Of a stretch of 64,000 nt of DNA, positions 3,656 through 12,567 are shown in pieces (position 1 is the stretch's first letter; each line of letters starts with the position of its first letter). The translations under genes and the position numbers were made by a program. Source of the stretch: Alphaproteobacteria bacterium (lineage in GTDB: Bacteria; Pseudomonadota; Alphaproteobacteria; UBA828); assembly GCA_965237415.1 (NCBI GenBank), contig CBDEFM010000001.1, forward strand, positions 32,001 through 96,000, given 5' to 3'. Below the pieces are notes generated by a model. That model was not told where the DNA came from. It saw only the letters and a list, made by a program, of their open reading frames with translations, and searched no databases.

Positions 3656-4116
3656 TGTTCTGTCCCAGAGATAGATGATATATTTATGGGCAGTTTCCTG
3701 TCAGGAGTCTGAGCTGGCCTCGCCCTGAGGTGGCCCCGGAAAATCGGGCAGGTCGCTAAGGTGTGCGCCACTTACAAATCTGATTTGCGGTACACTGAGG
3801 CTGACGTAGGGTTGCAGTTTCATCCTGTATCATGGTTATGATACAATAGCTTAGGGTTGCTGTCAAGGACGAATGGGGCTGGTTCGAACGACACAGAGAT
3901 CGACAAAGTGACACTGAGGAGTTGCGCTGGGGGATCAGGTGTGGAAGTTGGACTGGAACATCTATACAATCCTGTTGATCCGATAGATGGGATCTGTACG
4001 TAACCTATAAGTGATACGAGTGGTATGGCTATGAGGATTTCCCGAGGAATCTGTGTGACAACGTTTTCCATATGGAGATCTGCTGTGTTGCAGCTGACGC
4101 AGGCTTTTTCGGACGG

Positions 4117-4488
4117 ATGGCGGCCATGAGGGAGGATGCCAGCGGGCGCCGCCAGCGTGCCGTGATGGCGACCGATGAGGAGTGGGAACGGATCGGCCGG
4201 GCGGCTGCGGCGAGCGGCATGGACCTGTCGCGCTACGTGATCCATCGCGCGCTGGACCTGGCCCCTCTGCCGCCGGAAGTCCTGCGCCGGGCGGTGCGCG
4301 AGATGCTGGTGCTGTCCAGGCTGGAGGAGAGGCGGCTGCGCGGGGCCGGCGCCGGCGAGGCCTGGGAGGACGCTTGCGACGCGGTGGACGAATGGATCGA
4401 CCGGGAGGGCATGCTGGAGGGGCTGACCGATCCCGGCGCGGCGAACCGCTGGAAGGCGATTGGGCCGGCTGGAGAGGACGAGCCGTGA
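4117..4488 (+). CDS. Ribbon-helix-helix (MobC/TrwA/CopG-like) protein 1
   Basis: RRQRAVMATDEEWERIGRAAAASGMDLSRYVIHRAL fits the RHH beta-alpha-alpha pattern; upstream of relaxase. Confidence 0.65.
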   Translation: MAAMREDASGRRQRAVMATDEEWERIGRAAAASGMDLSRYVIHRALDLAPLPPEVLRRAVREMLVLSRLEERRLRGAGAGEAWEDACDAVDEWIDREGMLEGLTDPGAANRWKAIGPAGEDEP

Positions 4489-4796
4489 CGGAGGAGGCGG
4501 AGCGGTCCGGCAGGCGGCAGCGGAGCCTGCACTGCAAGCCTGCGGAGCAGGCGATGATCCGGGAGCGCGCGGCGGCGACGGAGAAGACAGTGTCGCGCTA
4601 TGTGATGGAGCTTGCGCTCGCCGACGATCCGGACCGCCATCCCCTGGTGCTGACGGAAGAGGAACAGGTGGAGCAGCAGGATGGGGTCCTGGAGTTGCAG
4701 GCATTGGCGCAGGCTCTCCGGCGCGAGCTTCCGGGCGGCAGCGGGCTGAGCCTGCTGAGCGCGATCTCCGTGCTTGCACGGGAGCGGGCGCCGTGA
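4485..4796 (+). CDS. Ribbon-helix-helix protein 2
   Basis: GTG overlaps previous TGA (GTGA); RRQRSLHCKPAEQAMIRERAAATEKTVSRYVMELAL. Confidence 0.65.
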   Translation: MTEEAERSGRRQRSLHCKPAEQAMIRERAAATEKTVSRYVMELALADDPDRHPLVLTEEEQVEQQDGVLELQALAQALRRELPGGSGLSLLSAISVLARERAP

Positions 4797-5248
4797 GACG
4801 GGCGCGGCGCCGCCGGAAGGTGGGCAAGCACATCTCGCTCTCGGCGACGGACGCGGATTGGGAGATCGTTCGCAGCAATGCAAAGCAGCGCGGCCTGTCG
4901 ATCGCGCGCTACCTGGTGGAGCTGGTGGAGCGGGACGCTTCGGAAGAGGACGCCGGTCCTGCGCTGGCGCTCGCGGCGGAAGAGCAGCGGGAGCAACTGG
5001 AGGCGGTGCGGGAGATTCGCGCGCTGATGCTGGAGGGGGAGGATGCGGGTCCCCTGGTGCGCGACATGCAGGAGCGGATCGCGGTGATGTTCGCCGCCTG
5101 GGCGTCTGCGATGGCCGGGTCGGGCCGCTCGGAAGAGCTGCGTGCGGCGCTCGCCTCGGTGCTGGGAGAGGAGCGAGCGCGCATCGCTGCGGCCTCGGTC
5201 GTGGCCTCGGTCGTGCCGTCTGCCGCGAAGCGGGCGAAGGTTCCGTAG
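4793..5248 (+). CDS. Ribbon-helix-helix protein 3
   Basis: GTGA overlap; KHISLSATDADWEIVRSNAKQRGLSIARYLVELV followed by a helical C-terminus. Confidence 0.65.
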   Translation: MRRARRRRKVGKHISLSATDADWEIVRSNAKQRGLSIARYLVELVERDASEEDAGPALALAAEEQREQLEAVREIRALMLEGEDAGPLVRDMQERIAVMFAAWASAMAGSGRSEELRAALASVLGEERARIAAASVVASVVPSAAKRAKVP

Positions 5249-5361: not shown

Positions 5362-5733
5362 GTGACTGCGGACCGCGACGGCAAGAGCAGACAAGGCCAG
5401 CCGGACCTCCTGGCGAGCCTGCCGGCGGAGCGTCCGCCCGCTTCGCAGCCGGCACCCGGTATCGATCCGGCCGCGATCGAGGAATTGCTGACCGGGGTGC
5501 GGGACCTCCGCGAGCAGGTGGCCGGACTGAGCCGTGTCGCCGAGGGAGCGGCGGCCGCCAAACAGCCGGCGCCAGTAACGCCGGAGGCGCTCGAGGCCTG
5601 GGGCGACAAGCTCGTGAGCCGTGTCGCCGAGGCCGCGCGGACCGCGGACGCACCGGGGGACGAGGCGGCGGCGTTCCCCCTCTCTGCCTCTGCCGCTCAC
5701 CGGCGCGGCCTTATCCGAGGCCTGAGCCGATGA
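5362..5733 (+). CDS. Hypothetical protein (coiled-coil, possibly truncated), coupled to relaxase
   Basis: Strong RBS GAGGAGGGG before GTG; ATGA overlap with relaxase start; internal 18-bp direct repeat TGAGCCGTGTCGCCGAGG at 5528 and 5615. Confidence 0.5.
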   Translation: MTADRDGKSRQGQPDLLASLPAERPPASQPAPGIDPAAIEELLTGVRDLREQVAGLSRVAEGAAAAKQPAPVTPEALEAWGDKLVSRVAEAARTADAPGDEAAAFPLSASAAHRRGLIRGLSR

Positions 5734-8700
5734 CAGCCACGGTCGTGGTGGTTCGTTCGTCCGGCAAGGCGGTGATCTATTACGAGCGCGACGGCTACTA
5801 CCTCAAGAACGACCCCGAGCACCGCCAGGCGAGTTTTTGGTACGGGGATGCGGCGAAGGCGCTGGGGCTCAGGGCCCATGTGCGTCCGTCGCGCTTCGAA
5901 GCGGTGCTGTCGGGATACGTGCCCGGGACGGATCTGCGTCTCGGCCGGATGCGCGAGGGGCAGCACGAGCACCGGCCGGGCTGGGACATCACCCTGTCGG
6001 CGCCGAAGTCGGTGTCGCTGGAGGCGCTGGTGATGGGCGACCGCCGCGTGATCCGGGCTCACGACGAGGCGGTGCGCGCGACGCTCGACTTCGTGGAGGC
6101 GGAGCTTCTGCAGACCCGGGGCTGGGACCCGGCGACCCGCCGCCGCCCCCGGGTGAGCGCGAATGGCATGGTGGTGGCGGGGTTCCGGCATCTGGCGAGC
6201 CGCGACCAGGACCCGCAGCTGCACACCCACTGCGTGCTGGCCAACATGACGCGCACTGCCTCGGGCGAATGGCGGAGCGTGGAGCCGACGAAGATCCGCC
6301 GCAGCCAGAAGCTGATCGGAGCGTATTACCGGAACGAGCTGGCGCGGCGCCTCCAGGCGCTCGGCATGGCGGTGGCGCCGCGCATGGTGGGGCCGGTACC
6401 GGGGTTCGAGCTTGCGGGTTACGAGCGCTCGTTCATCGATGCCTTCTCGGGCCGGCGCCGGGCGATCCTGGAATACCTGGAACAAAAGGAGCTGTCCTAC
6501 ACGGCGGAGAATACGCAGATGGCGGCGCTGCACACGCGCCGGCGCAAGGAGGACCGGACTCTCGCGGACCTGGTGCCGGAATGGCGCGCGCGGGCCCAGG
6601 CACTGGGGCTGGTCCGGGAGAGAATGGCTCTGAGGCCACCCCGGCCCCTCGACCCGCTGACCGGCGAGCAGGTGAGAGTGCCGCGCGTGCCAGCGCCGGA
6701 CCTGCCGGCCAACGAGATCCGCAGCCAGAAGCGCGCGCCGGCGCTGCCGAAGCTGCCCCGCGACGGCGTTTCCGAAGGGGCGGAAGCGCGCCTCACAGGC
6801 GCGGGCTTCCGGGCGCCGGCGGAGCTGTTGCTGAAGCCGGAGCGGGGCGTTCTGGAGGCGGTGGCGCGGGCGGTGGCGCATGTTGCGGAGAGGCGCACCG
6901 CGGTCCCGGAGGCCGAGATCCGTGCGGTGGCGCTGGGACACGCGCCGGGGCGCTACACGCTGGCGGAGATCGACGCGGCGATCGCACGGCTTGTGCGTGA
7001 CGGCGAGCTGATCGAGGTGGAACGCCGGGGGATGGACCGGGCCTTCGTCACCGACCGGGCGGTGAAGGCTGAACGCCGCGTGCTGGCGTCGATGCGGGCG
7101 GGGCGCGGCAAGGGCATGGCGCTGGCGAACGGGGAGATGGTGGAGAAGCGGCTCGAGCCGTCGCGCCTCACCCGGGGCCAGAGGGAGGCGGTCCGCACGG
7201 TGCTGTTGTCGAACGACCTCGTGATCGGCGTGCAGGGCCATGCCGGCAGCGGCAAGACGACCATGCTGAGCGAGGTGAAGGAGCTACTCGGGGAGCGGAA
7301 GATACAGGGCCTGGCGCCGTCGGCCGTGGCCGCCCGGGTTCTCGCCAGGGAGGCCGGCATCCCCACGCGGACGCTGCAGTACTTCCTGACCCGCTTCGGC
7401 GACCTCTCGGACCCGGAGCGGCTGGCGCGGGCCCAGGCGGAGTACGCGGGCGCGGTTCTGGCGGTGGACGAGGCCTCGATGACCGGCAGCGTTCGCATGG
7501 AGGCGCTGCTGCGCGTCGCGCGCGCGCTGAAGGTGGCGCGGGTCGTGCTGGTGGGCGACACCAAACAGTTGAAGGCGGTGGATGCGGGGCAGCCCTTCCG
7601 TCTGCTGCAGAAGGCGGGCATGGCGACAGCGACGATGAAGGAGGTGAAGCGCCAGCGCGACCCGGAGCTGCGGGCTGCGGTGGGTCTTGCCCGGGAAGGG
7701 GAGCCGGGCGCGGCGATCGCGGGGCTGGGCAATCGGGTGCGCGAGGCGCCTCAGGAGGAGCTTGGGTTGGAGGCGGGGCGTCGCTGGCTCGCGCTGGCTC
7801 CGGAGCATCGGGCGGACACCCTGATCCTCGCCCCCACGCACGCGATCTGCCGGCAGGCGAACGAGGCCGTGCGCGAGGGGCTGGCGGAGGAAGGCCTGTT
7901 GAGGGGCCGCACACTCGCCGTCGACCGCCTGGTCAACCGGCGGCTCACCCGGGTGCAGGCCTCCGACATCCGGAGCTACGAGCCCGGCGACACCGTCGTG
8001 TTCCATCGCGACGTCTTCGGCTGCCGCGCGAACGACGTCTGCATCGTCATGGGCCACGACGACGGCAGGGTCGTGCTGGCCCATGCGGACGGCGAACGGC
8101 GGTTCCGGCCCTCGGGCAATGCGGCGGGCTATCTGGGCCTCTACGACACCGAGCGGATCGAGTTGCGTGCCGGCGACCTGATCCGCTGGACGCGCAACCG
8201 CAAGGCACCCCTCGCCCGCGGCAACCATCCCCAGGCGCCGGACCTGGTCAATGGCGGCGAGGCGGAGATCGTGGAGATCGGATACAAGCGGGTGCGCTTC
8301 CGCGACGGAGAGCGGGAGTTCAGTATCGCGCTCACCGACCCGCAGCTCCGCCATCTCGATCACGCGTATTGCTCGACCGTGCATTCTGCACAGGGCCGGA
8401 CGGCGCGGGGGGCGATCGCCGTGCTGGACGCAGGCGGCTGGGTCGACCCCGAGCTTTTTCATGTCGAGCTCAGCCGGGTCTCTGAGGCGTTCCTGCTGCT
8501 GACCGACGACCGGGAGGCGCTGACCGACGACCGGGAGGCGCTGATCGAGCGCCTTGAGGCGCAAGACTGGAGCGAGGACGGGGCGCTGGAGGCGTTGGGG
8601 ATCGACCTTTCCGAGCCCCCCGTGGTCGACCCCGAAGAGTTTGCGGCGCTGGCGGCGGACTGGCGGGCACTTCTGCGGGAGGGCGAGGAGAGGAACACCG

Positions 8701-10748
8701 TTCCGTTCTTCCTCACGGGCTACCGGGAAGTGATGGCGCGGGCTGCGGCGCTGGCGCAGATCGAGGACCTCCCGGAGGACATGCGCCGCCTTACCGGCAC
8801 CATGCTGGCGGAACACGAGGGGCATCTCGCGCGTGACCGCGAGGTGCGCGGCCTCGTCGAGCGCGTGCGCGACCATTGGCGGCGCTGGCCGGAGCTCGGC
8901 TGGGCGGCCTCCGCGCAGGGACTGCCCATCGAGGAGCTTGCCGAACACGATACCTGGCGCGAGGAAGGGGTGGCGCTTCTGGAGGCGGGCCGTGCCAGGC
9001 TCGGGGCGGACGGCGAGGCCGCACGCCATCTCCGTGCCATGCCGGGAGCGCGCGCCGGCCTGGAAGAGGCCATCGAGATGCTCGAGCGCACGCGGCTCCT
9101 CGACAATGCCGAACGCTTCGAACGGGCGTGGCCAGCGCTTCGCGAAGGGGCCTCGGAGATCGGCGTCCCGGAGCTGCATGCGCCCGGCCACCGGCTGGTG
9201 GCGGAGTTGGGCGAAAGGCTCGAGGCCGCCGAGGGGATCGATGCGCATGTACGGCGCGCGCTGGCGGAATGGCGGGAGGTCGAAGCGGCGCAGGTGGCGC
9301 TGGCGGAAGAGGTGCGCACCCTGCCCGGCCGCATCGCGGCGTGGCGGGAACGCCGGGCGGACCTGCCGCAGGACGAGCCCGGCGGGCTCGATCCGAAACA
9401 TCCCGCTCGCCGCGCCTGGCGCGAGGAAGGCGGTGCACTGGAGGCAGTGGCCGGGGACATGCTGCACCCCAAGAGCGTCCACGCGCCGCACCTGGCCGCC
9501 ATGCCGGGTGAGCGCAAGGCGCTGGTCGAGGCAACGAGCAGCCTCGAGAGCGCGCTGCTCGCGGTCGAGGCGCGGGAGAAGAACGTGCTGTCTGCGGTCG
9601 TGCGGCGGTCGGCGGACGAGCTCCGCCGAGACTGGAAGGCGCACCTCGCTGAGGCCGGGGCTGTCCGCGTCGATCCCTTCTACGTTCCGGGGCACGAAGA
9701 ACTCATCGACCGCCTGCAAAAGCTACGCGCCGACCCTGCCGTCGAGGAACTGCCCGAACGAGAACGCAACCAGATCGACTCCATCCTCGAACAAGACACG
9801 CGCCAGACCAAAGCCATCTTGCACGTCGACAACCATCTCGCCGAGGTCCAACGCTGCCGCAACCACCTCCAGGAGCTCCAGGATCTGGCATATACGTACA
9901 GACTCAAGCTTGAGAAGGTGCACTCCTACGACGAATGGCACGACACCGCAGAGCGCCTCTTCGCGGCGGGGAAGGCCATCACCGATGACCGGAAAACCTA
10001 CGGACCCTGCCTCGAACACCACCCCGGCGCCTGGAGCGGCGTCCACGCCGGCATCCGCGAGCTCGGCACGGCCCTGGGCCGCGCCACCACCTCCCTCCAT
10101 CACCGGCACCCCGAGCTTTACCTCGACCCCATCACCCGGCCCGTTCCCGACTCACAGCAGGCCATGGACGCCGACGCGAGCTACCGCCGCCTCCGCGACC
10201 AATGGCACACGCACGTCGCCCTGGCGGAGACCAGCCAAGCCCACCCCTACCACCTCAAGGGCCACGCCGCGCTCATCGACGCCATGCGCGAGCTACGCAA
10301 CCTGCCCGATCTCGCCACAAACGCTCAGCAGGCCCTCGATACCCTGCTCCACGACTACACCCCACTCCAACAGGTCCGACAGCACATCCACGCCTGTCTC
10401 GACAAAGCCGAGCACGCCTTGGAGGAGTACCAGCGCTTCAAGGACACCGTGCAAAAGCTTAGCCCACTGGACGTCGGCCTTGAGGACATCGAGGGCTATG
10501 GCGAATGGAAGGACCGCGCCCTGCGCCTGGCCGACGCCGGCGAGGCCATCCTCGCCGACCCGGAACGCTTCAGCATCCACCTCGACGACCACCCCGACGA
10601 CGCCAAGCGCATCCGTTCCAGCGTCGCACTCCTCAACACCGCCCTCGGGCGGGACGACGCATCCGAGCGTCGCGAACGACATCAATCCCTGTCCGAAGAC
10701 GAGAAGACCGCCGAACGCCTTTCACAACGCCGCGGCATCAAGCTCTAG
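5730..10748 (+). CDS. MOBF (TrwC/TraI-like) conjugative relaxase-helicase with repetitive C-terminal extension
   Basis: Y17Y18/Y23Y24 (IYYERDGYY), RPGWDITLSAPKSVS, HUH motif FRHLASRDQDPQLHTHCVLAN; SF1B helicase motifs GHAGSGKTT, VDEASM, GDTKQL and HAYCSTVHSAQGRT. Confidence 0.93.
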   Translation: MTATVVVVRSSGKAVIYYERDGYYLKNDPEHRQASFWYGDAAKALGLRAHVRPSRFEAVLSGYVPGTDLRLGRMREGQHEHRPGWDITLSAPKSVSLEALVMGDRRVIRAHDEAVRATLDFVEAELLQTRGWDPATRRRPRVSANGMVVAGFRHLASRDQDPQLHTHCVLANMTRTASGEWRSVEPTKIRRSQKLIGAYYRNELARRLQALGMAVAPRMVGPVPGFELAGYERSFIDAFSGRRRAILEYLEQKELSYTAENTQMAALHTRRRKEDRTLADLVPEWRARAQALGLVRERMALRPPRPLDPLTGEQVRVPRVPAPDLPANEIRSQKRAPALPKLPRDGVSEGAEARLTGAGFRAPAELLLKPERGVLEAVARAVAHVAERRTAVPEAEIRAVALGHAPGRYTLAEIDAAIARLVRDGELIEVERRGMDRAFVTDRAVKAERRVLASMRAGRGKGMALANGEMVEKRLEPSRLTRGQREAVRTVLLSNDLVIGVQGHAGSGKTTMLSEVKELLGERKIQGLAPSAVAARVLAREAGIPTRTLQYFLTRFGDLSDPERLARAQAEYAGAVLAVDEASMTGSVRMEALLRVARALKVARVVLVGDTKQLKAVDAGQPFRLLQKAGMATATMKEVKRQRDPELRAAVGLAREGEPGAAIAGLGNRVREAPQEELGLEAGRRWLALAPEHRADTLILAPTHAICRQANEAVREGLAEEGLLRGRTLAVDRLVNRRLTRVQASDIRSYEPGDTVVFHRDVFGCRANDVCIVMGHDDGRVVLAHADGERRFRPSGNAAGYLGLYDTERIELRAGDLIRWTRNRKAPLARGNHPQAPDLVNGGEAEIVEIGYKRVRFRDGEREFSIALTDPQLRHLDHAYCSTVHSAQGRTARGAIAVLDAGGWVDPELFHVELSRVSEAFLLLTDDREALTDDREALIERLEAQDWSEDGALEALGIDLSEPPVVDPEEFAALAADWRALLREGEERNTVPFFLTGYREVMARAAALAQIEDLPEDMRRLTGTMLAEHEGHLARDREVRGLVERVRDHWRRWPELGWAASAQGLPIEELAEHDTWREEGVALLEAGRARLGADGEAARHLRAMPGARAGLEEAIEMLERTRLLDNAERFERAWPALREGASEIGVPELHAPGHRLVAELGERLEAAEGIDAHVRRALAEWREVEAAQVALAEEVRTLPGRIAAWRERRADLPQDEPGGLDPKHPARRAWREEGGALEAVAGDMLHPKSVHAPHLAAMPGERKALVEATSSLESALLAVEAREKNVLSAVVRRSADELRRDWKAHLAEAGAVRVDPFYVPGHEELIDRLQKLRADPAVEELPERERNQIDSILEQDTRQTKAILHVDNHLAEVQRCRNHLQELQDLAYTYRLKLEKVHSYDEWHDTAERLFAAGKAITDDRKTYGPCLEHHPGAWSGVHAGIRELGTALGRATTSLHHRHPELYLDPITRPVPDSQQAMDADASYRRLRDQWHTHVALAETSQAHPYHLKGHAALIDAMRELRNLPDLATNAQQALDTLLHDYTPLQQVRQHIHACLDKAEHALEEYQRFKDTVQKLSPLDVGLEDIEGYGEWKDRALRLADAGEAILADPERFSIHLDDHPDDAKRIRSSVALLNTALGRDDASERRERHQSLSEDEKTAERLSQRRGIKL

Positions 10749-10856: not shown

Positions 10857-11603
10857 CTAGCCTTCGCTCCCCTTGGCGCCATTGGGCTGCTTGGCCGCGA
10901 AGGCCTGTCGCACGAGCTCCATCGCGTAAGCAATCTGGCGGGCGTTATCCACCTCCAGCTGGACGTCGCCGTTGCCCCAGAGCCCGAGATTGGTGATGTC
11001 GGCCGCAAGCCCGCGCGGATCGGAGATTTCGTCGAAGCGCATGTTGAGGGTGAGCAGGAGCCGGCGCTTCTGCGGCACGATGTCTGTGAAGTTGGTCTGC
11101 GTCTTGTAGGCGACGTAGTGCCTCGTGAACTCTTCGCGGACCTCCGGCGCGAGGCCGAGGATCTCCTGCCTGACCGCCTCGAAGAGGTCGTGCATCGGCG
11201 CGCCGGGACGCAGATGCGGGTGATGCTCGATGGCGTAGCGGCCGGCGCCGGCGCGCGGGGTCCTGTACGGTTCGAGGACGCGGTCGGGGAGAACCGGACG
11301 CTTCCAGATCCCGACCGCCTCGTCAGCGAGACGCGCGCCGCGGGCGCGGATGGTATCGCCGTCCCAGCGCTCCGTCTGCCGCAGGTCGGCGTTCAACCGC
11401 AGTGGGCTGTCGCGGTATCCCTTCTCGGCATCGCGCTTGTCGCGGAACGGCCTGTTGCCCATCTCCGGGTTGAAGGCGGTGAGGGTCAGGTTGCCGAGGG
11501 TATGGCGGAGGCTCTGCCAGGTCTGCGCCCAGTCGGGCCCGAGCTCGGCCTTCCATGTTTCCGGCAGGCGTTCGCCCTGCGGCATGATGTGATCGACCGT
11601 GTA
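10857..11603 (-). pseudogene. 5'-truncated GmrSD-like type IV restriction nuclease (DUF1524 HNH plus DUF5655-like C-terminus)
   Basis: YTVDHIMPQ...HTLGNLTLTAFNPEMGNRPF...SPLRLN, then HYVAYKTQTNFTDIVPQKRRL...GLWGNGDVQL. N-terminal DUF262 part is absent. Confidence 0.8.
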
Positions 11604-11604
11604 A

Positions 11605-12567
11605 GGCGGCCACGACGTGACGTTCGTCGACATCGTGGACGACCACGTCGACGCGATCGCGACGACCGGGCTTGCGATCGAGGGCCCGGTCGACCGCTTT
11701 ACCGCCACCGCGCCCGCCGTCACGCCCGACGCGCTGAGCGGCCGATACGGGCGCGCGCTTCTCTGCGTAAAGGGCCAGGACACGGACGCGGCGGTGCGCC
11801 GCCTCGCGCCATTCCTCGCCGATGACGGCTACGCCGTCTCCGTTCAGAACGGCCTCAACGAGCACACGATGGCAACGGTGCTGGGGCGCGAGCGCGTGAT
11901 CGGCTGCTTCGTCAATTTCGGAGCGGATTACATTGAACCTGGCCGTGTCCACTATGGCGGCCGCGGGGCCGTCGTGCTGGGCGAGCTCGACGGGCGGATG
12001 ACGCCGCGGCTCGACGCGCTCATCGATGTGTTCCGCGACTTCGAGAGCAACGCCCGGGCGAGCGCGAATATCTGGGGATACCTGTGGGGCAAGCTCGGCT
12101 ACGGCGCGCTGCTTTTCGCGACCGCGCTCGCCGATGATTCCATCGCCGACGCGCTGGCGCAACCGGCTCATCGCACGCTCTACCGCGCGCTCGGCGAAGA
12201 AGTCATGCGGGTCGCGCACGCCGGCGGCATTGCGCCCGAGGGCTTCAACGGCTTCGATCCTGCCGGCTTCGTCCCCGGCGCGGACGCGGCGGCTACCGAA
12301 CGTTCGATGTCGGCCATGGTGGCCCACAACCGCGGCTCGGCGAAATCGCACAGCGGGGTGTGGCGCGATCTCGCCGTCCGCAAGCGGCCGACGGAGGTTG
12401 AGCCGATGGTCGGCGCCGTCGCCCGCGAGGCCGCCCGGCACAGCATCGACACGCCTCTCCTGGCCCGGCTCACCGCCATGATCCACGAGATCGAGGAGGG
12501 ACGGCGCCCGCTCGATCGCGCCAACATCGACGCGCTCGCAGGCGAGGCGGCGCGACTGGCGGCCTGA
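11605..12567 (+). pseudogene. Ketopantoate reductase (PanE/ApbA) family, N-terminal Rossmann motif missing
   Basis: Frame begins GGHDVTFVD directly after in-frame TAA (11602-11604); LCVKGQDT, SVQNGLNE, LWGKL, RPTEVE present; no GxGxxG. Confidence 0.75.

Follow-up and report, generated by a model that had tools for sequence, protein, structure and literature searches.

The stretch analysed here comprises 64,000 nucleotides of an alphaproteobacterial contig (positions 32,001 to 96,000 of CBDEFM010000001.1, GTDB lineage UBA828) and is called the window in the following. It carries the gene of a MOBF relaxase-helicase of 1672 amino acids (aa), a protein that acts on DNA transferred by conjugation. 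The last ~710 aa of this protein are four in-register copies of an all-helical unit of 160-190 aa, which, by the searches described below, appears to represent an undescribed domain family. Together with the short tail that follows them, the units may mark their carrier proteins as substrates of a type IV secretion system (T4SS); we put this forward as a tentative proposal and weigh it against three alternatives.

Three motifs recur in each copy. The Trp of motif A is at aa 978, 1134, 1302 and 1492 in units 1-4, the Trp of motif B follows 98, 96, 101 and 101 residues later, and from motif B to the start of motif C the distance is exactly 25 residues in every copy. An earlier description of this DNA, made from the letters alone and referred to here as the sequence-only reading, had listed these motifs; all twelve strings were found where it had placed them, and its Trp positions were exact. 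It had also let the repeat extend from position 8640 of the window to the end of the gene. The end and the motifs held, the start did not: nucleotide 8640 corresponds to aa 971, and the true start is a little before, at about aa 960 (nucleotide 8607).

Self-BLAST of the whole protein returned the identity match alone, and the repeats emerged on unit-against-unit BLAST. Pairwise blastp of the units resulted in long in-register alignments, with an E value of 1.8e-19 for units 3 and 4 (180 columns, 32% identity), 7.5e-11 for units 1 and 3, 1.1e-5 for units 1 and 2, and 4.3e-4 for units 1 and 4. Neither units 2 and 3 nor units 2 and 4 showed a significant pairwise blastp alignment of their own. 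We also built profiles from the orthologues of one unit only (116-118 sequences each) and scored them against the other units of the window, with 1000 shuffled units per profile as control. The scores were 93-99 bits between units 3 and 4, 28-33 bits between units 1 and 3, 19-25 bits between units 1 and 4, and 21-22 bits between units 1 and 2, while the best shuffled unit per profile reached 6.6-10.0 bits. Profile scores between unit 2 and units 3 or 4 (2-8 bits) were within the range of the shuffles, so that unit 1 is the only link of unit 2 to the family. A hidden Markov model (HMM) of the four window units matched a fifth unit, absent from its training, in homologues of 1811 aa (E ~1e-21), and six units in a homologue of 2018 aa. 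The significant internal self-alignment that had been named beforehand as the test of the four tandem units after the helicase is present, and a four-copy repeat beyond chance is confirmed.

That the carrier is a MOBF relaxase, as the sequence-only reading had it, was borne out by profile searches. Pfam identified a TrwC relaxase domain (PF08751, E 3e-76) followed by an AAA_30 domain of a superfamily 1B (SF1B) helicase (E 1.6e-46), and the NCBIfam MobF model NF041492 reached 263 bits, its cut-off being 100. The full-length models for F-type TraI stayed far under their cut-offs on the window protein (TIGR02760, 373.5 of 929.85 bits; NF010263, 362 of 2212 bits). The protein contains Tyr pairs (YY) at aa 17-18 and 23-24 and the pattern H..HTH at aa 154-167, which we take to be the catalytic residues of MOBF relaxases, and a Walker A motif (GSGKT) at aa 506. 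Judged by these domain matches, it is a member of the MOBF (TrwC/TraI type) relaxase-helicases. Directly before the repeat region, the window gene has a 7-aa tandem duplication (TDDREAL-TDDREAL, window 8502-8543, aa 925-938), where the consensus of 118 homologues has one copy.

At 90% clustering the repeat region has 310 relatives, nearly all with TrwC and AAA_30 domains, 1665-2018 aa long, and almost all from European Nucleotide Archive (ENA) assemblies. In the following, P-numbers denote relative proteins, L-numbers loci, and G-numbers genomes, with G000 for the genome of the window itself (contigs C1 and C2). A search of the unit profile against 1.84 billion representatives (clusters at 50% identity) matched 618 proteins at E <= 1e-3, 380 at E <= 1e-10, and 124 at E <= 1e-30. 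Over the unit, no scanned family member has a match in Pfam, NCBIfam or the PDB. Among the best 150 of the 618 matches, relaxases carry 1 to 6 units; in relaxases the units always come after the helicase and are followed by a short tail. Taking all carriers together, the variation in copy number that the sequence-only reading had proposed to look for by an HMM search ranges from 1 to at least 16 units.

Aligned with the five-unit homologue P0006, the four-unit window protein shows one clean in-register gap of 146 aa, with the junction HAP|HL in motif C. The N-terminal part of window unit 2 corresponds to unit 2 of the five-unit relatives, the part past motif C to their unit 3. On this alignment, the four-unit form derives from the five-unit form by deletion of exactly one period. 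A clean one-period gap with its junction in motif C shows that copy number shifts by in-register recombination and that unit 2 is a hybrid.

The sequence-only reading had further suggested a search for carriers other than relaxases, and proteins with units and YAcAr or DUF4326 domains that lack a relaxase domain do exist. The Pfam scan covered 25 chosen proteins: in P0199, P0248 and P0261 (1005-1028 aa) a YAcAr/SLOG domain is surrounded by units, and P0190 combines units with YAcAr, in each case without a relaxase domain. P0265 (1411 aa), which also lacks a relaxase domain, combines two copies each of YAcAr and DUF4326 with units further on (aa 936-1389) and a tail of 22 aa. Relaxases can contain additional domains as well: P0127 has a C-terminal YAcAr domain behind its units, and in P0143 and P0126 DUF7146 lies between helicase and units. 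P0122 (2577 aa) consists of 16-17 diverged units and nothing else, and ends in RRRR. Pairwise comparison of 16 of these units gave a median identity of 34%. Because the protein begins inside a unit, it may be incomplete.

Two further candidates for carriers other than relaxases were rejected. P0062 (AAA_22 plus five units), encoded on the same 6.17-Mb chromosome as L009 and L010, switches abruptly from ATPase sequence (aa 1-173) into relaxase sequence at a place equivalent to about aa 690 of the window protein. In view of this abrupt switch it is most likely an insertion chimera, and it looks like the product of a mobile-element insertion into a relaxase gene. The open reading frames at L024 and L025 in the window's own genome, which have units and no relaxase domain, are 3' remnants of relaxase genes.

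YAcAr domains are also encoded by separate genes on the upstream side of unit-bearing relaxases, 3.6-6.2 kb from the unit match, in at least 12 places in three other genomes and in the own genome, as counted from the coordinates of YAcAr and unit matches; these genes belong to the unit-bearing elements. A gene for a protein of ~380 aa lies ~1.5 kb upstream of unit-bearing relaxases at L022:5178-6338 (G000:C2:845177-846337) and in at least 11 more places in G006, G155, G191 and G000. This protein has an unassigned N-terminal domain and a YAcAr/SLOG domain. A metagenome scan for the context of the YAcAr-unit fusions found at least 535 distant relatives, and 80 loci were kept, all of which match the unit-less N-terminal plus YAcAr part only.

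Two structure models were considered. The first, by AlphaFold2, covers aa 960-1672 and is based on 119 aligned sequences. It is all-helical with a mean predicted local distance difference test (pLDDT) value of 79; units 3 and 4 are at ~85-96, unit 2 is weakest, and the last ~30 residues are at ~35. In this model the final helix of each unit is continuous with the first helix of the following unit. The second model, of a single unit (aa 1466-1648), rests on 59 aligned units, taken from the window and 16 loci, and reached a pLDDT of 90.4 and a predicted template modelling score (pTM) of 0.71. Its helices comprise model residues 10-36, 47-58, 65-111, 125-143, 146-155 and 157-173, so that the unit is predicted to be an elongated rod around a central helix of 47 residues, with a three-helix bundle as C-terminal half. 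Motif A (PF..PGY) is placed in a loop past the first helix, motif B forms the fourth helix, and motif C (HL..PG) is the turn ahead of the last helix. These three motifs (Trp, PF..PGY, HL..PG) are kept between paralogous units, although unit types share only 12-31% identity.

Comparison of the models with known structures did not reveal a specific relative, and the single-unit model resulted in generic three-helix-bundle or spectrin-like matches only. The single-unit model had no match at E <= 0.001 in Foldseek searches of the PDB and of BFVD, and the top score in the ESM Atlas (0.77) was under the usable level. With the four-unit model, Foldseek returned long helical-repeat proteins only (best E 4.6e-3, TM ~0.1), which were discarded as uninformative. 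Model residues ~79-176 can be superposed on the three-helix bundles of the GAT domain, tubulin cofactor A and Not5, with a root-mean-square deviation of 2.4-4.9 A over 83-112 residues, values that the structure tool itself warns are common among helical bundles. For this reason we read the predicted architecture as generic: the unit would be an elongated helical rod, and no specific structural relative was found for it. In being antiparallel three-helix bundles, the spectrin and plakin repeats, the GAT domain, tubulin cofactor A and the Not5 N-terminus resemble the model, and the rods of spectrin and plakin, like the four-unit model, consist of tandem bundles joined via a continuous long helix (a spectrin repeat has ~106 aa).

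Sequence searches also left the unit without assignment, in line with the sequence-only reading. Region aa 960-1672 has no Pfam or NCBIfam match, either within the whole protein (E <= 1) or, for Pfam, with each unit alone (E <= 10). PHROGs contains no family for the repeat region. Among PDB sequences there was no family match for the protein or the unit profile, the best one being a designed helical protein (E 0.0026). No description of the unit was found in the literature on C-terminal repeats and domains of relaxases, as covered by the articles without their supplements.

The obvious candidate for a repeated C-terminal domain of an alphaproteobacterial relaxase is BID, the T4SS translocation domain that the sequence-only reading had named for comparison. 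The Pfam model for BID (PF17841, Bep_C_terminal) did not match the whole protein (E <= 1) or any unit (E <= 10). As a positive control, the same model matched TraA of Agrobacterium pAtC58 with E 4.1e-17 in two stretches, alongside MobA_MobL and AAA_30. Alignment of the 59-unit alignment to aa 1001-1542 of pAtC58 TraA (542 aa) by hhalign gave a probability of 0.13% over 11 columns, the single-sequence target limiting the sensitivity. BID chains were missing at E <= 10 in the PDB sequence searches with the protein or the unit profile, and also among the structural matches listed for the unit model, which does not exclude an unlisted family. By sequence the unit is not a BID domain, and no confident match to a described C-terminal domain of relaxases emerged.

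Nevertheless, the two domains have much in common. The BID of pAtC58 TraA was shown to be transferred (PMC6509941, PMC10025392), and BID occurs on relaxases, toxins and effectors (PMC6509941). Like the unit as modelled, BID, which together with a charged tail is found on TraA relaxases, PezT/Zeta toxins and Bartonella Beps, is helical, elongated and alphaproteobacterial. Both occur once or several times at the C-terminus, after relaxase and helicase and ahead of a short tail, and both are also present on cargo enzymes that are not relaxases. The long axis is comparable, with ~70 A for BID (PMC6509941) and a 47-residue central helix in the unit model. Modular helical C-terminal domains shared by alphaproteobacterial relaxases and effectors are thus a theme already known from BID. 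The differences concern length (160-190 aa for the unit, ~100 aa for BID), carrier relaxase (MOBF of the TrwC type versus MobA/MobL), linked coupling protein (TrwB-type, PF10412 with E 2.9e-134 at L017, versus VirD4-type) and copy number: relaxases have up to 6 units and one protein 16 or more, while BID is present in 1-2 copies in relaxases and up to 4 in Beps. Furthermore, the tail of unit carriers is weakly basic, that of BID carriers positively charged.

Other MOBF relaxases are also recruited to the T4SS by larger structured elements, the role proposed here for the unit, namely the translocation signals TSA and TSB of TraI (F/R1) and residues 796-802 of TrwC (PMC10025392, PMC6509941). These signals are located within the helicase-like region and show no tandem repetition; the units are an add-on after the helicase. 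A further parallel are the polyvalent proteins of conjugative elements and phages (Iyer et al. 2017, PMC5512222), multidomain proteins with conflict-related enzymes that are believed to accompany the DNA into the new host. This description applies to P0265 and P0127. The text of the article itself does not contain the terms SLOG, YpsA, DUF4326 or TrwC.

The window gene was compared with four homologues by simple Nei-Gojobori estimates of nonsynonymous and synonymous divergence (dN and dS) from pairwise alignments (L009-L012 for units 3-4, window 9582-10664). dN/dS was 0.26-0.86 for the units versus 0.09-0.65 for the enzymatic parts. Since it was below 1 in every unit comparison, there is no sign of positive selection at such resolution. 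In the same gene pairs, the dS of units 3-4 was 3-6 times that of the N-terminal two thirds (relaxase and helicase). This raised dS points to a C-terminal cassette with a partly separate history and indicates recombination or cassette exchange within the relaxase gene.

The unit is nearly confined to one uncultured alphaproteobacterial genus. Of 20 further species-level genomes of this genus, 18 contain it, with as many as 50 unit matches in one genome; none of 16 genomes representing other genera in the family does. One of five genomes of another family in the order gave a weak match. In a class-wide sample of 400 genomes, four had strong matches (two other families) and three marginal ones, and a phylum-wide sample of 400 yielded marginal partial matches only (E 2.5e-5 or weaker). 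No tblastn match for the repeat region was obtained in 72,556 PLSDB plasmid records. The 12 loci from named records are metagenome-assembled genomes (MAGs) labelled Alphaproteobacteria or Rhodospirillales. L011 and L016 are on one contig of a MAG labelled Dehalococcoidia, and their relaxase genes have 86-94% DNA identity to the window gene; this contig is either mis-binned or reflects a very recent transfer of the relaxase gene.

Most neighbours of unit-bearing relaxases in the relatives are transposases. L017 has a full context of DNA transfer and replication (Dtr) genes, with a TrwB-type coupling protein gene and a NikA-like gene beside the unit-bearing relaxase. The window's own genome contains nine TrwC matches, several relaxase fragments still carrying units, and three genes for TrwB-type coupling proteins, which are 85-89% identical over aa 1-428 to that of L017. 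Two of these adjoin TrwC-type open frames of ~1075 aa, the third adjoins relaxase fragments. VirB10-like and VirB4-like (AAA_10) genes are located at C1:311-315 kb; PF03135 itself had no match in the own genome.

Considering these data, we suggest that units and tail form a substrate module for the T4SS with a mode of action like that of BID and its tail, an interpretation by analogy that we regard as quite possible. Units and tail would dock the carrier protein onto the coupling protein or the relaxosome, and would offer an easily unfolded, translocation-competent C-terminus. We infer that the units may bind the coupling protein, have a role in transfer and perhaps an activity in the recipient cell. 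Delivery is in our view the best explanation for a portable C-terminal helical unit with a conserved, basic-ended tail, for its freely varying copy number, for its presence on relaxases as well as on conflict-type enzymes, and for the TrwB-type coupling protein linked to it in intact modules. The sequence-only reading had suggested a translocation, recruitment or recipient-cell module, a possibility that fits the YAcAr/DUF4326 fusions, the C-terminal position, the disordered tail with its basic end and the cassette-like evolution. To judge from gene content, a cognate machine does exist, since it can be recognised in the L017 coupling protein, the stub in the window (Table 1) and the coupling protein and VirB-like genes of the own genome. 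A more specific version is doubtful as a whole: a lineage-specific delivery domain, independent of BID, in which rod unit and short basic tail would turn any fused protein into a substrate of a TrwB-type T4SS, be it a relaxase, a YAcAr/DUF4326 enzyme directed at NAD+ or ADP-ribose in counter-defence, or the protein with at least 16 units, with copy number tuned by in-register recombination. If true, such a domain could have aided the rise of the relaxase-bearing elements to dozens of copies per chromosome.

Several observations weigh against delivery by units and tail. The tail has a conserved, basic extreme end in the 40 distinct tails listed, yet its net charge over the last 20 residues is -2 to +2 in these tails, which is weakly basic, and the P0199-type proteins end in a proline-rich tail instead. 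Four to seventeen copies exceed what a docking signal should need. The units are less constrained than most of the enzyme. The TrwC type of R388 is recruited via its internal signal at residues 796-802 (PMC10025392). In the own genome the unit HMM did not match the two ~1075-aa TrwC-type frames or the relaxase fragments beside the coupling proteins; given such unit-less relaxases next to near-identical coupling proteins, units are not needed for a coupling protein of this type to work. The 80 metagenome loci with the unit-less YAcAr part (697 kb) are devoid of units, MOBF relaxases and TrwB-type coupling proteins, and the 64 kb of the window contain no T4SS and no complete coupling protein gene.

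The units could instead be a structural spacer or scaffold, a spectrin-like flexible rod of tunable length that is not a secretion signal and that spaces or oligomerises the relaxase in the relaxosome, for instance by bridging the relaxase bound to the origin of transfer (oriT) and the membrane machine. This would agree with the elongated rod and the helix running on from unit to unit in the models, and whole-period changes between 1 and at least 16 copies are typical of rod domains. It does not explain, however, why the unit occurs on YAcAr/DUF4326 enzymes without a relaxase, the structural matches are in the range called common for helical bundles, and the conserved Trp, PF..PGY and HL..PG motifs suggest a specific surface or turn beyond a mere rod; we consider a spacer rather unlikely. 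The unit's company of predicted NAD+/ADP-ribose conflict domains leads to another alternative, namely that units enter the recipient with the relaxase and act there as effector or decoy, binding host or defence factors in order to shield the DNA or to sequester a nuclease or sensor. Multiple diverged copies would then broaden the target range, and the paralogous units are indeed diverged (12-31% between types, median 34% in P0122) and evolve fast and mosaically. Non-terminal BIDs of Bartonella effectors gained secondary functions (PMC6509941), and a GmrSD-like defence gene is cargo of the same element. Set against this, the unit resembles no known anti-defence protein (no family in PHROGs, none at E <= 0.001 in BFVD; PADLOC was not searched), dN/dS is below 1 in all unit comparisons, and no target can be named. 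Such a function is in our view unlikely.

Finally, the repeat might be a dispensable, lineage-specific expansion that arose by slippage or unequal recombination under weak selection and has no transfer role, the window gene being a decaying relic. The window module has lost both of its ends and lies stranded in housekeeping DNA, relaxase fragments of the own genome still carry units, selection on the units is more relaxed than on most of the enzyme, with dN/dS up to 0.86, and the family hardly leaves one genus. Yet the 1672-aa frame is intact with its catalytic motifs, the fold of the unit is predicted confidently (pLDDT 90.4), motifs are kept across paralogues of 12-31% identity, dN/dS stays below 1, the unit profile has matches in 618 representatives of clusters formed at 50% identity, and the unit was recruited onto other enzymes. 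We regard dispensability as very improbable. Which explanation applies determines the significance of the family. An undescribed domain family is documented in any case, and if the unit is a mere spacer or a dispensable expansion, interest is confined to annotation. The choice of protein substrates by T4SSs is only partly understood, and few structured signals are known: TSA and TSB of TraI, one motif of TrwC, and BID. If units and tail do mediate delivery, a second, unrelated modular domain on relaxases and conflict enzymes would offer an independent natural experiment on how substrates are recruited, possibly a new tag for protein delivery, and a marker for proteins that travel with DNA in uncultured Alphaproteobacteria.

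The surroundings of the relaxase gene are chromosomal housekeeping DNA, with genes for valyl- and tryptophanyl-tRNA synthetases (ValRS, TrpRS), MurJ, GlnD, Entner-Doudoroff enzymes and IlvD. Homology to other copies of the element extends from ~3725-3781 to 11174-11608 only. The features within this section are listed in Table 1; their order is coupling protein stub, one or two weak NikA-like genes, an unassigned stretch, the intact relaxase gene and a GmrSD-like fragment. The gene at 4072-4488 is 87-89% identical to genes in the same position at L011 and L017. The fragment at 10860-11606 has 94% identity to a protein of L010, with matches to GmrSD_C (E 2e-18, from profile position 47) and DUF5655 (E 2.3e-10). 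From these boundaries, the module is a stranded remnant of ~7.8 kb, truncated at both ends, between a GNAT gene and a ketopantoate reductase gene. The sequence-only reading had missed this truncated setting, with neither a coupling protein nor a secretion system nearby. If active at all, the window copy would depend on a coupling protein and a T4SS encoded elsewhere in the genome.

Table 1. Features of the stranded module and of the relaxase it encodes (positions in the window).
Feature	Position	Strand	Details
TrwB-type coupling protein stub, first 38 codons	3783..3896	-	tblastn with L017 coupling protein aa 1-38, 45% identity, E 2.8e-5; left end of module
NikA-like ribbon-helix-helix relaxosome accessory protein, probable, 138 aa	4072..4488	+	PF21983 E 4e-5, 24.1 bits, under the 27-bit cut-off
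Second weak NikA-like match	frame 4460-5248	+	E 0.0024
MOBF relaxase-helicase gene, intact	5730..10748	+	1672 aa, no internal stop; Pfam and NCBIfam matches
Parts of the 1672-aa protein			TrwC aa 12-291; SF1B helicase AAA_30 aa 480-666, extending to ~aa 950; four units; tail
Unit 1	8607..9083	+	aa 960-1118; motif-A Trp 978, motif-B Trp 1076, motif C 1099; pLDDT ~76-90 in four-unit model
Unit 2, hybrid	9084..9581	+	aa 1119-1284; pLDDT 47-84, least confident unit of the model
Unit 3	9582..10151	+	aa 1285-1474; motif-A Trp 1302, motif-B Trp 1403, motif C 1426; pLDDT mostly 85-96
Unit 4, terminal	10152..10664	+	aa 1475-1645; motif-A Trp 1492, motif-B Trp 1593, motif C 1616
C-terminal tail, predicted disordered, conserved	10665..10745	+	aa 1646-1672; end SQRRGIKL; pLDDT ~35
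GmrSD-like restriction endonuclease gene with DUF5655, 3' fragment	10860..11606	-	aa 343-591 of 591 (last 249 codons); right end of module

The relaxase-bearing elements have multiplied within chromosomes, as seen on C1 and C2 of G000 and in G404, G405 and G411 of the same genus, and some copies in the same genome score identically. A second copy of the module is located at G000:C1:579947-582982 and C1:620257-621183, beside a coupling protein gene that looks intact. The upstream regions of this copy and of the window module are 89% identical, and the first 814 nucleotides of the two relaxase genes 99.4%. The relaxase gene of the second copy is then broken, and a further piece (95% identical) lies ~38 kb off.

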